Positions 17,582-31,845 of a stretch of DNA of 41,826 nucleotides are shown piece after piece. Location of the stretch: NCBI GenBank assembly GCA_964588985.1, contig CAZPQW010000027.1, positions 1 to 41,826 of the forward strand, read 5' to 3'. The notes beneath the pieces are model-generated. The model searched no databases. It was not told where the DNA came from and was given only the letters and a program-made list of their open reading frames with translations. How positions within the stretch are numbered: the stretch's first letter is position 1; each line of letters begins with the position of its first letter. A program made the position numbers and the translations under genes. The stretch comes from an uncultured Solirubrobacteraceae bacterium. Lineage in GTDB: Bacteria; Actinomycetota; Thermoleophilia; Solirubrobacterales; Solirubrobacteraceae.

Positions 17582-18367
17582 GGCGCCCGCACGGGCGTCG
17601 CGCACGATCCGGCGCATGCCCTTCAGCCAGCGCTCCGGGTCCGAGCCCTTCAGCGCGAGGAAGCCCGCCACGTTCTCGTGCGGCAGGATCAGCAGCCGCT
17701 CCACGCGGATCCCCTCCACCACCGCGTCCGCCACGTCCTCCGGTTCGATCAGCCCGCCCGCCGTCAGCGCCGCCGCGCCCGCCGGCTCGTGCATCGCCAG
17801 TTCGAGCATCGGCGTGCGCACGCCCTGCGGGCAGATGCACGACACGCGCACGCCCTGTTCGGCGTATTCGATCGACATCCACTCCGCCAGCGACACCGCC
17901 GCGTGCTTCGTCACGCTGTACACCAGCGACGACACCTGCGTCAGCAGGCCCGCCGCCGAGGCTGTGTTGATCAGGTAGCCCTCGCCGCGCTCGAGCATCT
18001 CCGGCAGCAGCGCCCGCGACGCCCACACGTGCGCCATCACGTTCACCCGCCACGCCTCGTCCCACGCCTCGTCCGGCGCCTCCGGGCCGCCCATGCCGCC
18101 GGGCACGCCCGCGTTGGAGATGAAGACGTCGATCTGCCCGTTCGCCTCCGTGGCCTTCGCGATCAGCGCGCGCACGCTGTCCTCCTCGCCCGCGTCCAGC
18201 TCCACCGCCAGGCCGCCCACCTCCTCGGCGATCCGCTGCGCGCCCTCCAGCTCGCGGTCGGCCACCACCAGCGCTCGCGGGCGCTCCTCGGCGAACCTGC
18301 GGATCAGCGCCCGGCCGATGCCACCGGCCCCGCCGGTGACCACGATGTGCTTGTCGGCAAGCTCCAC
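17567..18367 (-). CDS. Short-chain dehydrogenase/reductase
   Basis: TGGAGGIG, SNAG, TASAAG, YSVTKHA. Confidence 0.93.
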   Translation of the reverse strand: MELADKHIVVTGGAGGIGRALIRRFAEERPRALVVADRELEGAQRIAEEVGGLAVELDAGEEDSVRALIAKATEANGQIDVFISNAGVPGGMGGPEAPDEAWDEAWRVNVMAHVWASRALLPEMLERGEGYLINTASAAGLLTQVSSLVYSVTKHAAVSLAEWMSIEYAEQGVRVSCICPQGVRTPMLELAMHEPAGAAALTAGGLIEPEDVADAVVEGIRVERLLILPHENVAGFLALKGSDPERWLKGMRRIVRDARAGASGDA

Positions 18368-18438
18368 CCGGCGTACTCTATGTCAATGGCGCTCGCCGAG
18401 ACCACGCTCCGGCGCAGCGCATAGCATCACCCTCCAAG

Positions 18439-18942
18439 ATGCCCCACGCCGACGAGATGCTGAAGGAGGCCGACGCGCGCGCACCGCAGCTCGCCGCACC
18501 CGGCCTCAGCCCCAGACCGCGCGAGCGCGTCGCCGTGCTCGCATGCATGGACACGCGCATCGACCTCTTCCCGATGCTCGGCCTGCAGCGGGGAGACGCG
18601 CACATCATCCGCAACGCCGGCGGCCTCGCGACCGACGACGCGATCCGCTCGCTCAGCATCTCCCAGCGCCTGCTCGGCACCGAGGAGATCATCGTCGTGA
18701 TGCACGACGGCTGCGGCCTGCACGGCGCCTCCGAGGACGAGTTCACGCAGGCCTTGGCTGCCGACGGCGCCCTGCCCAACTGGCGCCTCGGCGCGTTCGA
18801 GGATGTCGAGGCGACCCTCCGCCACAGCCTCGCGCGCCTGCGCTCCAGCCGCGAGCTGATCGCCCACGACCACATCAGGGGCTTCGTCTTCAACCCCGAG
18901 ACGGGGGAGCTGCGCGAGGTTCAGCCGGCCGCGAGCGAGTAG
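18439..18942 (+). CDS. Beta-class carbonic anhydrase (small, clade D-like)
   Basis: CMDTR, RNAGG, DDAIRSL, HDGCG zinc ligands. Confidence 0.92.
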   Translation: MPHADEMLKEADARAPQLAAPGLSPRPRERVAVLACMDTRIDLFPMLGLQRGDAHIIRNAGGLATDDAIRSLSISQRLLGTEEIIVVMHDGCGLHGASEDEFTQALAADGALPNWRLGAFEDVEATLRHSLARLRSSRELIAHDHIRGFVFNPETGELREVQPAASE

Positions 18943-18952
18943 CGCGGCCGCC

Positions 18953-19540
18953 TCAGGGGTTGCCGGTTTTGACGTACTCGTGCACCGACACGAGCCGGAC
19001 CGGGCCTTTGATCACCCGGTAGCCGTGCGGGCGATCGGCGCGGAAGCTGATCAGATCGCCCTGGCTGACCACCTCCGAGAACGACTCGGTGGAGATCTCG
19101 ACGGTCCCTTCCGTGATCGCGAGGTGCTCGAACAGCCCGCTCACGTGGGCGCCCGACTGGCGCACCGCGCCGTCTTCGAGCTCCATCGTGTAGATCTCGA
19201 TCAGGTCGCCGCCGGTCCGTGTCAGCAGGTGGCGGATGACGAGGCCCTGCGTCTCCAACCCGGCCTGATCGACAGCCACCACCGGGGCTTCGTGCTGGCG
19301 CACGACCAGCACGTCGTCCGCCGCCGGCTCGTCGTGGAAGAGACTCGCGAACGGAACTCTCAGGGCCGTCGCGAGCGCCCAGACGGTGTCGATGGACGGG
19401 TTACCCTGCCCGCGTTCGATCAACGAAACGGTCGACTTGGCGATCCCGGCCTGTTCCGCGAGGGCCGTGAGCGTCAGTTCGCGCGTCATCCTCCAACGCC
19501 TCAGGTTGCGCGCGATCGGGGTCAGTGCTCCCTCGTCCAC
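18953..19540 (-). CDS. XRE family HTH + cupin transcriptional regulator
   Basis: LTALAEQAGIAKSTVSLIERGQGNPSIDTVWALA; cupin H...E...FRADRPHGY. Start chosen at GTG 19540 (ORF track gives 19567). Confidence 0.9.
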   Translation of the reverse strand: MDEGALTPIARNLRRWRMTRELTLTALAEQAGIAKSTVSLIERGQGNPSIDTVWALATALRVPFASLFHDEPAADDVLVVRQHEAPVVAVDQAGLETQGLVIRHLLTRTGGDLIEIYTMELEDGAVRQSGAHVSGLFEHLAITEGTVEISTESFSEVVSQGDLISFRADRPHGYRVIKGPVRLVSVHEYVKTGNP

Positions 19541-19545
19541 GGAGC

Positions 19546-19584
19546 AAGTTCTATCGCACCGACGCATGTGTGTATCTAGAACTT
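19546..19584. promoter_or_regulatory. Inverted repeat AAGTTCTA-N23-TAGAACTT, candidate operator of the XRE-cupin regulator
   Basis: Perfect 8-bp AT-rich inverted repeat immediately upstream of the regulator start. Confidence 0.4.
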
Positions 19585-19631
19585 TGTCAGGAGCGCCCCA
19601 CTCGATCTCCGCGAGTCAGCCGTCGGCCCCG

Positions 19632-21407
19632 CTATGACCGCTGTCTGAGCAGCATCTCGCGCCGGGCGAGCGTGCCCTGGACATCGACAGACAGCTGACT
19701 GCGCGACGCGTCCTGCGTGAGCACCACGCCGTAGACGTCGTGGGCGGCCTCCCTGCTGACCCAGCGATCGAGCACGTCCTCGAGGACCGCCCGCGGGTCG
19801 CGCTCCAGCGGGTCGCCATAGCCCCCGCCGCCCGCTTCGACCCCGCGAATCCACTCGCCCGGCCGCAGGTGGGAGTCGCCCACCGGCTCGACGCTCCGCT
19901 CGCCGCCATCGCCGTCGATCACCCTCACTGACGCCGCCACGCCGGCCGCGCCGCCGTCGACGCCCTGCGCCGGGTGGCGCGCGAAGTCTGCGAGGTAGAA
20001 CACGCGCATCGGCGTCGCCCTCGGCCCGAAGACCAGTTCCGATGCCGGGCCGCCGCGCTGACGGCCCGCGCCGCCGGAGTCCGTCAGCAGCCGCAGCGCG
20101 CGGAACCGCAGCGGGTAGGTCCGCTCGAGCATCTCCACGCTGTCGATGTACACCGTCTTCGAGCAGTCCGGCATTGCATACGTCACCCACCCGTCGCAGT
20201 GCGTAGACGCCGGCCCGCCGTTGTTGCCGATCCCCAGCTCGCTCACATAAGGCTCGCCGCTGCCGGGATGGGTGCCCGAGAAGACCGCGAAGCCGACCCC
20301 GAGCGTCCCGCCGCCCTCCGCCAGGCCCTCGCCGTCGCCGAGCTCGCAGAACGCGCTCTGCGCGGAGTTGATGATCCGCTCGAGCACGTTGGTGGTCGCC
20401 GCCGAGGCCGAGTACGGCGCCACGAGGCCGCCCGCGATCGAGCCCTCGCGGATCAGCATCTCGACGCGGCGCATCGCGCCCGCGTTGCGCGGCACGTCGT
20501 CTTCGAGGCAGTTGAGCAGCGCGATCACGCAGCCGCTGCGCGCGCAGCTCTCCGACACGTTCAGCCCGAACGGGATGCAGTCGGGGTTCTCGCGCAGGTC
20601 GAAGCTCACACGACCCTCGTCCGGGTTCACCTCGAGCGTCACGCTCACCTCCACGCCATCGGGCAGGCCGGGTATCGGGTCGTGGCGGGAGCTCGCGCCC
20701 ACGCGTCCCGCGGGTAGCCGGCCGATCGCGTGCGCCATGCGCCGCTCGGAGTAGTCCAGCCACTCCTCCACGAATGCCCCGATTGTCTCCATCCCGTAGC
20801 GCGCTATCACCTCGTGCAGGCGCCGCTCGCCCGTCCGCGCCGCGCCCACCGCGGCTAGGTAGTCGCCGTACCACACCTCCGGCACGCGGATCCGCCGGCG
20901 GCACGTGCGGATCACGTCCTCCACGTCCGCGTAGTCCTCCTGCACCTTCACGCACGGGAAGATCAGCCCGCCCTCCGCGTACACGTCCTCCACGTACGCC
21001 ATGTACGTCGACGGCTCGGAATTCCCGCAGTCGGCCTGGTGGGCTTTCGCCGACGCCGTGAACACGTGCTTCCCGTCGGCGAACACCGGCACGAGGATCG
21101 CGTGGTCGGCGGTGTGCGTGTTCCCGAGCATCGGGTCGTTGTGCAGGAACGCGTCTCCCTCGCGCAGATCGCGGTGCAGCTCGCGCATCGCGCGGGCCTG
21201 CAGCCCCGCGCCGAGCACGTGCACCTGCAGCCCCTCGGCGGCCGCGAACAGCTCGTCCTCCGCGGTGATGATCGAGCACGAGAAGTCGCGCGCCATGTTC
21301 AGGATCGAGGAGCGCGACGTGCGAAACAGCGTGTTGCTCATGTCGCGCACGATCGCCTCGAAGCGGTTGGCGAGCACCGCCATCAGCGTGGGGTCCATGC
21401 GGATCAT
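19632..21407 (-). CDS. Hydantoinase B / oxoprolinase family protein
   Basis: RTSRSSIL...RDFSC, NDPMLGNTHTADH, AHQADCG, DSGGAGRQRGG, GGGGYGDPLERD; ATGA overlap with the A subunit. Confidence 0.93.
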   Translation of the reverse strand: MIRMDPTLMAVLANRFEAIVRDMSNTLFRTSRSSILNMARDFSCSIITAEDELFAAAEGLQVHVLGAGLQARAMRELHRDLREGDAFLHNDPMLGNTHTADHAILVPVFADGKHVFTASAKAHQADCGNSEPSTYMAYVEDVYAEGGLIFPCVKVQEDYADVEDVIRTCRRRIRVPEVWYGDYLAAVGAARTGERRLHEVIARYGMETIGAFVEEWLDYSERRMAHAIGRLPAGRVGASSRHDPIPGLPDGVEVSVTLEVNPDEGRVSFDLRENPDCIPFGLNVSESCARSGCVIALLNCLEDDVPRNAGAMRRVEMLIREGSIAGGLVAPYSASAATTNVLERIINSAQSAFCELGDGEGLAEGGGTLGVGFAVFSGTHPGSGEPYVSELGIGNNGGPASTHCDGWVTYAMPDCSKTVYIDSVEMLERTYPLRFRALRLLTDSGGAGRQRGGPASELVFGPRATPMRVFYLADFARHPAQGVDGGAAGVAASVRVIDGDGGERSVEPVGDSHLRPGEWIRGVEAGGGGYGDPLERDPRAVLEDVLDRWVSREAAHDVYGVVLTQDASRSQLSVDVQGTLARREMLLRQRS

Positions 21408-31243: not shown

Positions 31244-31339
31244 TGCGCCCGGAGGGAATCGAACCCTCGGCCTGCGGCTTGAAAGACCGCTGCTCTTTGG
31301 CTCCCCGAAGAGAACCGTTGACCACTGAGCTACGGGCGC
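31244..31339 (-). tRNA. Atypical 96-nt tRNA, anticodon UUC (nominally Glu), with a hairpin inserted in the D-loop
   Basis: Reverse complement GCGCCCG TA GCTC AGTGGTCAAC-GGTTCTC TTCG GGGAGCC-AAA GAGC A GCGGT CTTTCAA GCCGC AGGCC GAGGG TTCGATT CCCTC CGGGCGC A; all four arms pair. Confidence 0.85.
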
Positions 31340-31495
31340 GCGTTATGGATGTCTATCGACTCTATCGGCCGAACGCGCACCTTATCTAAGCAAGGCCGTT
31401 GCTTGCACCGCGATCACCGTGTCGGCCAAGCGGCCGATCGTTTCCGACTGAGGCGCCTTCGGCGACCCAGAATCCCAGTGGGTGCGGCATGAGCG

Positions 31496-31549
31496 GAATG
31501 TCATACACGAATGTTAAGTTGACATTCTGCGTAAAACGTGATTTATATG
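31496..31549 (+). promoter_or_regulatory. Candidate sigma70-type promoter with overlapping palindromic operator
   Basis: Perfect TTGACA at 31519-31524 inside GAATGTTAA-G-TTGACATTC (31509-31527). AT-rich, imperfect -10 region (TTTATAT) starting at 31542. Confidence 0.5.
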
Positions 31550-31559
31550 TCCTCAGCGG

Positions 31560-31845
31560 GAATGGCTCCCGACCATCTGGAGCGCTTTTTCAACCGGATG
31601 GGACGACAGTGCAAAGGGGACTGGAAGGTCTGATGACGGGCTTTAGGTCAAGCAAGATGCGAGACCAGCAGCACGACACACGCGGTGCCTGTGCGATTTA
31701 TCGCACAGGATTCAGTGTCGTACCTGCGGCTGGGTCATTTGGAAAGAACTCGAGCGCTCCGGTTGTCCAGTTTGGACAACCGCCGATGCTCGGATCCATG
31801 CCTCGCGGCGGGTGCCGCGCTGGCCAAGGAATGGGGATGGAGGAC
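31560..31845 (+). ncRNA. Putative structured RNA / long 5' leader (family not recognised)
   Basis: Four successive stem-loops: 31573-31601, 31665-31733 (inner perfect 10-bp stem 31688-31709), 31751-31792 (inner perfect 10-bp stem 31760-31782) and 31804-31819. Strand inferred from the upstream promoter. Confidence 0.45.

Follow-up and report, generated by a model that had tools for sequence, protein, structure and literature searches.

Which tRNA reads GAA in a genome whose only gene with a UUC anticodon is built on a body resembling that of an arginine tRNA? The question is raised by a tRNA gene on the minus strand (31339..31244, 96 nt) of the stretch of DNA analysed here, hereafter the window, whose 41,826 nt are contig 27 of a 48-contig metagenome-assembled genome (MAG), G000 (3.41 Mb, 95.9% complete), from a genus of the Solirubrobacterales referred to as g1. 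The gene, tRNA(UUC), scored 66.2 bits with the Rfam model RF00005, for which the gathering threshold is 29, and its alignment to that model revealed a 25-nt insertion in the D-loop, directly after GGU, which folds as a hairpin. In our reading, this hairpin tRNA is probably the working elongator tRNA that decodes GAA as glutamate in g1, a five-armed molecule remoulded from a tRNA-Arg that has taken the place of the canonical tRNA-Glu(UUC). Among the results behind this reading are the absence of any other UUC tRNA among those found in the genome, the complementary distribution of the hairpin tRNA and the canonical gene, and the alignment of GAA codons with glutamate in other genomes.

The structure of the gene was examined with an alignment (A1) of 32 distinct 96-nt hairpin-tRNA sequences, on which a model of 28 pairs, comprising the cloverleaf and the hairpin, was tested. 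Pairing in the model amounted to 99.6%, both sides had changed in 12 of the pairs, and none of 500 shuffles reached these values. Within the hairpin helix, five of the seven pairs varied on both sides and 98.7% of the cells were paired; RNAalifold independently yielded the same structure, hairpin helix included. The invariant columns comprised U8, A14, G18 G19, A21, the T-loop UUCGA, U33 and the 7-nt anticodon loop. A real and constrained tRNA gene, a cloverleaf with a D-loop hairpin, was thus confirmed. Two other foldings were discarded. ARAGORN returned a "tRNA-???" with a 4-base anticodon "ggag", taking the hairpin for the anticodon arm and the true anticodon arm for a long variable arm; this was rejected because its "loop" is the tetraloop on the 7-bp stem, and both Rfam and the covariation back a normal cloverleaf. 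The minimum free energy fold of the single sequence paired the D region otherwise, an alternative without support in the alignment. The features of the locus, in forward-strand coordinates, are as follows.

31333..31339, minus strand: 5' strand of the acceptor stem, GCGCCCG, the same as in tRNA-Arg(ACG) and tRNA-Arg(CCG) of G000; pairs 1-7 with 89-95, 100% paired in the 32 sequences
31327..31330, minus strand: 5' strand of the D-stem, GCUC (C11, C13), from Rfam and the alignment; U8 A9 lie between it and the acceptor strand
31317..31326, minus strand: 5' part of the D-loop, AGUGGUCAAC, G18 G19 followed by U20; invariant in the 32 sequences
31299..31316, minus strand: extra arm within the D-loop, a 7-bp hairpin GGUUCUC/GGGAGCC with loop UUCG, from covariation and RNAalifold
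31296..31298, minus strand: linker AAA, its last A being position 21; invariant in the alignment of 32
31292..31295, minus strand: 3' strand of the D-stem, GAGC, from Rfam and the alignment
31274..31290, minus strand: anticodon arm GCGGU-CUUUCAA-GCCGC, with UUC at forward 31281-31283; columns 55-59 invariant
31269..31273, minus strand: variable loop AGGCC, 5 nt, from the Rfam alignment
31252..31268, minus strand: T arm GAGGG-UUCGAUU-CCCUC, with four of its five pairs changing on both sides
31244..31251, minus strand: 3' strand of the acceptor stem, CGGGCGC, and discriminator A73 (31244), from the Rfam alignment
31383..31388, minus strand: candidate -10 element TAGATA, 43 nt upstream of the 5' end of the tRNA

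The gene is widely conserved in its genus. Full-length copies with 88 to 100% identity were detected by BLAST in 22 of the 24 other g1 genomes, the exceptions being G010 (63% complete), with a weak partial match, and G021 (90% complete, 200 contigs), with no match. A search of species-representative genomes with the exact 17-base D-arm word recovered at least 120 stretches, nearly all in records titled Solirubrobacterales, Solirubrobacteraceae or similar, and the hairpin tRNA(UUC) was present in at least 117 Solirubrobacterales species genomes. Among the matches listed, 119 of 120 genome loci parsed as a hairpin tRNA (117 with UUC, one with ACC and one with UGU); 115 of these 119 copies were exactly 96 nt long, with 20 versions of the hairpin sequence, and the exact loop CUUUCAA was found in 115 of the 119. 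The UUC anticodon is evidently under selection, being kept while the hairpin sequence varies. For its part, a covariance model of our own (R1) scored 116.3 bits on the G000 gene; in 151 evenly drawn genomes of the order, it gave 116 to 119 bits over 96 nt in the four g1 genomes only. In the other 147 (36 of them from the same family; 145 without G090 and G111, which are flagged as unpublished), the best match per genome did not exceed 74 bits over 72 to 75 nt, corresponding to an ordinary tRNA.

The accessible part of PMC9976931 gives U11:A24, U13:G22:A46 and the lack of a residue 47 as the major determinants of Escherichia coli glutamyl-tRNA synthetase (GluRS), attributes the same core determinants, with an augmented D-stem, to Acidithiobacillus GluRS1, and lists U34 U35 C36 A37 of the anticodon loop as strong GluRS determinants; the bacterial arginine identity set is there A20, C35, U/G36 and A/G73. 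The anticodon-loop set for glutamate is present in tRNA(UUC) (loop CUUUCAA). The rest of the molecule is close to arginine tRNAs: with the insertion removed, the closest tRNAs of G000 were Arg(ACG) and Arg(UCU), at 81%, followed by Leu(GAG) at 79%, a match that is through the shared acceptor stem, and Lys(UUU) at 78%. The tRNA-Glu(CUC) of the same genome (C10:75651-75724), which has a canonical body with U11:A24 and a 4-nt variable loop, was outside the 12 closest. In addition, the first 14 to 18 bases of tRNA(UUC) are identical to those of Arg(ACG) and Arg(CCG), and in some g1 variants the whole anticodon stem and variable loop are those of Arg(ACG). At position 20, tRNA(UUC) has a U, next to the insertion, and all four tRNA-Arg genes of G000 have an A; of the remaining arginine determinants, C35 and U/G36 are replaced by U35 and C36, and A73 is present. 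With A20 and C35 both lost, both major determinants of arginyl-tRNA synthetase (ArgRS) are gone. We read tRNA(UUC) as a probable descendant of a tRNA-Arg-type gene, that is, as a case of alloacceptor remoulding. The initial annotation of this locus, made from the letters alone, had described the molecule in much the same terms, and the description held: the Rfam alignment reproduced the loop CU-UUC-AA with the anticodon at forward 31281-31283, the GCGCCCG acceptor, the GCUC/GAGC D-stem, the 5-nt variable loop and A73, as well as the lack of U11:A24, of the U13:G22:A46 triple and of a 4-nt variable loop (here C11:G24, C13:G22 and AGGCC), and the Arg/Lys-like body agrees with the similarities to Arg(ACG), Arg(UCU) and Lys(UUU) just given.

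A first alternative concerns the insertion, which could be an intervening sequence that is excised, the halves being rejoined or left nicked, so that the mature molecule would be an Arg-derived tRNA-Glu(UUC) of ordinary size; the other parts of our reading would be unaffected. Archaeal tRNA genes can have D-loop introns, a hairpin whose length and helix are kept while its sequence is free fits a processing signal too, and there are variants with 42-nt and 53-nt inserts at the same site. Nevertheless, we regard excision as unlikely. The insert is a plain, uninterrupted 7-bp stem with a 4-nt loop and has no bulge-helix-bulge motif, and the splicing endonuclease domain PF01974 had no match in G000 (95.9% complete) in a search whose control was positive in four archaea; on these two results, an intron of the archaeal type was rejected. 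A 7-bp stem also seems too short for RNase III. Metatranscriptome contigs from four runs of four studies spanned the whole tRNA and the hairpin without a joint and none skipped the insert, although such contigs would not exclude a spliced form. Finally, the single-stranded flanks of the hairpin, UCAAC and AAA, are invariant in A1 and resemble parts of a folded D-loop. It is more likely, on these sequence features, that the hairpin is kept in the mature tRNA than that it is cut out.

The census of tRNA genes in G000 comprised 48 calls by ARAGORN and 46 by Rfam, the additional ARAGORN calls (on C4 and C39) being without Rfam support. No second UUC tRNA was found by either program in this 95.9%-complete genome, and the other expected anticodons were all present; thus, the tRNA set of G000 is complete only when the hairpin tRNA is counted. 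A scan for a pattern in which a T-loop comes after an anticodon loop with UUC was run on G000, on the closed g1 genomes G005 and G023, and on the closed genome G025. It recovered the hairpin tRNA alone in G000 and G023, and the hairpin tRNA plus two non-tRNA sites in G005. In G025, a member of family f2, it gave one non-tRNA match and BLAST gave none, so that a GAA reader of that family was not found by these two means. Four canonical tRNA-Glu(UUC) queries from the same family produced no full-length match in G000, only matches the size of a T arm, and no remnant gene; a canonical CUC-type query led to 30 loci of the order, and all the tRNAs found there had the anticodon CUC.

The distribution of the two kinds of gene was complementary. 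A canonical tRNA-Glu(UUC), at a match length of more than 25 nt, was detected in none of the 25 g1 genomes. In other families of the order, it was present as a gene of 72 to 75 nt in 9 of 16 genomes, none of which had the full-length hairpin tRNA. Similarly, four of the five genomes of the same-family genera g44, g45, g46 and g48 had the canonical gene, and the hairpin tRNA was not found in the 36 genomes that belong to the family but not to g1. In the order, the canonical tRNA-Glu(UUC) shows U11:A24 and in most cases U13:G22, its variable loop is 4 or 5 nt long, and the gene is frequently part of a Val(UAC)-Glu(UUC)-Lys(UUU) cluster. The complementary distribution indicates that, in the lineage of g1, the canonical gene gave way to the hairpin tRNA. 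By elimination, the hairpin tRNA is supported as the likely GAA decoder of G000. As a separate observation, Lys(UUU) and Val(UAC) lie 3 kb apart on contig 34 of G000 (17776-20897), and the interval has no tRNA-Glu; elsewhere in the order, in other families and genera, the canonical Glu(UUC) stands between this pair within about 1 kb.

From the mismatch between anticodon and body, the initial annotation had gone on to suggest that GluRS may not charge the molecule, which could instead bring a different amino acid to GAA codons, feed a non-ribosomal aminoacyl-tRNA pathway or be an uncharged decoy. Here the description stood, and the evidence contradicted the functional inference. The RNA is the only UUC tRNA found, an outcome that the annotation itself had named among those that would count against its idea, and GAA means glutamate; a separate canonical tRNA-Glu(UUC), which that annotation had proposed to look for, was not found in G000 and is missing exactly where the hairpin tRNA is present; and the extra aminoacyl-tRNA synthetase paralog that it had also proposed to seek was not found among GluRS-type genes of G000. 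In its most developed form, this alternative makes the hairpin tRNA an uncharged or otherwise charged RNA, either a decoy for anticodon nucleases or part of a non-ribosomal pathway, with GAA read by another molecule such as a modified tRNA-Glu(CUC). It draws on the lack of the GluRS core determinants, on the occurrence of the scaffold, with several anticodons, in contigs of phages and in a mobile repeat of three copies, and on the fact that UUN-type tRNAs are known nuclease targets. We judge it improbable, however, given that no other UUC tRNA is available for approximately 10,600 GAA codons, and we know of no bacterial tRNA-Glu in which C34 reads A-ending codons. Moreover, the canonical gene was lost exactly where the hairpin tRNA occurs, all tRNA core positions are conserved, and the gene stands in a housekeeping neighbourhood with no peptide-synthesis or defence gene adjoining it.

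The meaning of GAA was studied by comparing its codons with aligned residues in other genomes. In 2,459 open reading frames (ORFs) of G000 with a high GC content at the third codon position, GAA occurred 10,621 times (11.6 per thousand codons, 18% of GAR). For RpoB, the comparison covered 27 outgroups from the phylum and left aside two genomes that are flagged as unpublished; the gene contains six GAA codons, two of which fall in columns with glutamate in 26 of 27 and 27 of 27 outgroups, and a third in a column that is mostly glutamate. In 156 alignments to 400 kb of the outgroup G051, GAA (n=401) was aligned with E in 39.7%, R in 10.7% and D in 8.5% of cases, and GAG (n=3605) with E in 51.0%, R in 8.3% and D in 7.2%. 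A second comparison comprised 115 alignments, with 66% identity, to G087, which belongs to the same family and has the canonical tRNA-Glu(UUC). There, GAA (n=327) rendered E in 44.6%, D in 15.3%, A in 10.7% and R in 3.1%, and GAG (n=2919) rendered E in 60.0% and R in 2.9%, K being outside the seven commonest residues. The lower share of E at GAA is attributable to codon bias and not to another meaning, since the rarer codon showed a similar drop for AAA versus AAG, GAT versus GAC and TTG versus CTG in the same comparisons. In general, the alignments show GAA to stand for glutamate in g1, with no Arg or Lys signal, and a reassignment of the codon was rejected on the RpoB, G051 and G087 data. 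Charging of the tRNA with arginine or lysine, by its body or by U35 and A73, with GAA reassigned or ambiguous in g1, would be in keeping with the Arg-like body, with A73 and with the role of U35 as a determinant of lysyl-tRNA synthetase (LysRS), but it is hardly credible, having been largely refuted by these alignments, in which R and K showed no excess at GAA over GAG and GAA occupied invariant or near-invariant E columns of RpoB, and the molecule has neither A20 nor C35.

A single gene with the GluRS/GlnRS catalytic domain was detected in G000 (C33, 454 aa), which leaves neither a dedicated paralog nor a glutaminyl-tRNA synthetase (GlnRS); the GluRS of G000 is presumably non-discriminating. 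In sister lineages (L326-L329; G039, G087, G152, G077), there is a second GluRS-like paralog of about 300 aa that consists of the catalytic domain only, with 39 to 44% identity over approximately 290 residues. This paralog was not found in the g1 genomes G000, G023 and G170, and in G005, G002 and G009 the extra GluRS matches correspond to fragments of the main gene. The GluRS proteins of g1 have inserts, one of 7 aa in G000, G023, G170 and G005, and low-complexity ones close to residue 346, between 10 and about 60 aa long, in G023, G170, G005, G002 and G009. With the core rules of E. coli left unsatisfied, charging would have to depend on the anticodon loop or on a new feature, for instance the hairpin. 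We infer, from these sequences, both that the GluRS charges tRNA(UUC) and any role of the hairpin in its identity.

Several observations weigh against a glutamate elongator with a retained fifth arm. C11:G24 replaces U11:A24 and C13:G22 replaces U13:G22(:A46), each invariant in the 32 sequences, and with a 5-nt variable loop, AGGCC, residue 47 is not missing as the E. coli enzyme requires. A search for co-evolution of GluRS with the tRNA, in an alignment of 11 sequences, gave no change common to all six g1 sequences. The GAA comparisons were made on a crude ORF set with pairwise alignments, and the genome is a MAG of 48 contigs. The RNA contigs run into flanks unlike those of the window, and so stem from relatives and may represent precursor or DNA; with flanking sequence attached, they cannot show the form of the mature tRNA. 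Finally, the same scaffold occurs with the anticodons UUU, UGU, ACC, CCU and UGC, and some of these variants (UGC with G3:C70) are unchargeable by the usual rules, so that the scaffold may serve some purpose other than decoding.

In the course of events that we propose, the anticodon of a tRNA-Arg-type gene would have become UUC, and a 25-nt insertion with a stable 7-bp hairpin would have been gained at position 20. The resulting tRNA would read GAA, and probably GAG too, as glutamate throughout one large uncultured genus (g1), and the single GluRS would charge it mainly by the anticodon loop (U34 U35 C36 A37). The mature tRNA would probably retain the hairpin, as a fifth arm directed away from the elbow. 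A more specific scenario is possible but doubtful. According to it, the retained arm would have enabled the switch of identity, by blocking ArgRS at position 20, by substituting for the augmented D-helix for GluRS, or both; the scaffold would be a portable chassis of phages and mobile elements (UUC, UUU, UGU, CCU, UGC, ACC), one copy of which was domesticated by the ancestor of g1 and displaced the canonical tRNA-Glu(UUC), perhaps under pressure from tRNA nucleases.

The hairpin tRNA shares with the canonical tRNA-Glu(UUC) of sister genera (e.g., L318, L319) and other families the UUC loop, A37 and a GAA reading that is likewise inferred, as well as one copy per genome and a promoter-like element of its own. 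It differs in its unrelated body, with C11:G24, C13:G22, a variable loop of 5 nt instead of 4 nt and the 25-nt hairpin insert in the D-loop, and it has G1:C72 where the tRNA-Glu of the order has G1:U72. With the tRNA-Arg genes of G000 (ACG, UCU, CCG), it has the same acceptor stem and D-stem and a very similar anticodon stem and variable loop, but the anticodon is UUC (U35, not C35), position 20 is U and not A, and the hairpin is extra. As in the class II tRNAs (Leu, Ser and bacterial Tyr), whose long arm is an identity mark for some synthetases, there is a fifth helical arm conserved in length and pairing and not in sequence. Here, unlike in that class, the arm leaves the D-loop, between positions 20 and 21, and the variable region is an ordinary one of 5 nt. 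The non-canonical tRNA introns of archaea are also short structured insertions within the D-loop; in contrast to them, the present insertion is in a bacterial genome, has no bulge-helix-bulge, and no splicing endonuclease domain was found.

As to the change of acceptor family, an experiment of Saks et al. in 1998 is said to have taken an E. coli tRNA from Arg(UCU) to Thr(UGU). Alloacceptor remoulding, as described for mitochondria in the accessible part of PMC4783518, leaves a tRNA nearer to another acceptor family with the ancestral gene lost; anticodon shifts are reported for eukaryotic nuclei (PMC3923123, accessible part), and the yeast mitochondrial tRNA-Thr is derived from tRNA-His (PMC3113583, accessible part). 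The hairpin tRNA resembles these cases in that its body is nearer to the other family and the ancestral gene is lost. It differs from known remoulding in that it lies on the chromosome of a free-living bacterium, all three anticodon bases differ from those of the closest Arg relative, a new structural arm is present, and the enzyme concerned is GluRS, which in model systems reads both core and anticodon. Full-text searches, with subscription journals and supplements outside their reach, turned up neither a bacterial tRNA described as having a hairpin in its D-loop nor any account of this Solirubrobacterales tRNA. Nor did the accessible parts of a review of non-canonical tRNAs (PMC7609411), of PMC7590224 and PMC5389517, and of a 2026 preprint on reassignment in Acidimicrobiales mention such a tRNA.

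If the reading as a remoulded glutamate tRNA is correct, a bacterial elongator tRNA that is essential functions with one more arm, in its D-loop, and with the body of another amino-acid family, and it is charged with glutamate without the core features required by the best-studied GluRS enzymes. It would constitute a natural test of the extent to which the anticodon by itself can determine tRNA identity, and of how an alloacceptor switch gets fixed in a bacterium with thousands of affected codons. It would also raise the matter of how RNase P, EF-Tu, the ribosome and the enzymes of tRNA modification cope with a bulky insert beside the elbow, and the naturally tolerated insertion site for a hairpin would be of interest for engineering tagged or orthogonal tRNAs. 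Given that standard finders mislabel the gene (it is undetermined for ARAGORN), an abundant soil genus seems to be without tRNA-Glu(UUC).

The scaffold was also present in viral contigs and in versions with other anticodons. The 17-base D-arm word matched eight IMG/VR viral contigs, and of the seven viral copies that parsed, four had UUC, two CCU and one UGC. One of the UUC copies sits between two tRNA-Pro genes (a Pro-UUC-Pro array), and UUC copies in phages are as expected for a tRNA used by the host machinery. A looser viral pattern (TGGTCAAC, a gap, and AAAGAGC) gave chance matches: among the matches listed (at least 120 loci), none of the seven with a T-loop-like motif was a tRNA. A UUU version was found in G011 as three copies on three contigs (L026, L027, L028), each of 124 nt with a 53-nt insert and an encoded CCA; they are 100% identical over 224 nt, flanks included, and presumably belong to a repeated, mobile element. 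G001 has a UGU version with a 42-nt insert, and the ACC version of the scaffold came from one MAG (L090).

Partial copies were noted as well. Copies of the 3' part only, from the anticodon loop on, lie 7 to 19 kb from the full gene (L030, L031 and L032 in G009; L035 in G011) and have the appearance of duplicated attachment sites, the usual trace of elements whose target for integration is a tRNA gene, here this one. In addition, a conserved stretch of about 150 nt ending in a tRNA-like 3' part was observed at L036, L037 and L038 (G019, G002 and G009, respectively) and at L033 and L034 (G026 and G031, respectively). It contains the 3' strand of the D-stem, the anticodon arm (loop CUUUGGA or CUUUCAA), the T arm and the 3' strand of the acceptor; no matching 5' acceptor strand was found in these five stretches, and the Rfam tRNA scores were weak (30 to 43 bits). 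They may represent the end of an element or a much longer D insertion.

In the window, one flank of tRNA(UUC) has genes for a solute-binding protein, a zinc alcohol dehydrogenase and a polysaccharide deacetylase, and the other has genes for an alpha/beta hydrolase, a transketolase and a transaldolase; these housekeeping genes are the neighbours, and no peptide-synthesis or defence gene adjoins the tRNA. A generic scan for sigma-70 promoters and terminators around the gene returned no sites. Upstream of the tRNA, a TAGAWW motif was observed in 18 of 23 g1 loci, mostly 38 to 45 nt away, and its conservation suggests that tRNA(UUC) may have its own -10 element. The CCA end was not encoded 3' of the tRNA in any of the 23 g1 loci, the G000 gene included. 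Between the tRNA and the next gene, an AT-rich island (31480-31560) stands out in a window of 65% GC; it contains a plus-strand TTGACA followed 17 nt on by TTTATA, a pair rejected by the criteria of the promoter scan.

A second mismatch between anticodon and body was observed in G000, outside the window, on the minus strand of contig 5 (104171-104243; L022:51-123). It is a 73-nt tRNA with a short variable loop and the anticodon UAA (Rfam, 65.2 bits), found alongside a normal, long-armed tRNA-Leu(UAA). This tRNA was absent from the one sister-genus genome checked and conserved at 89 to 95% in three of four other g1 genomes; UUA codons amount to 0.2 per thousand in G000.

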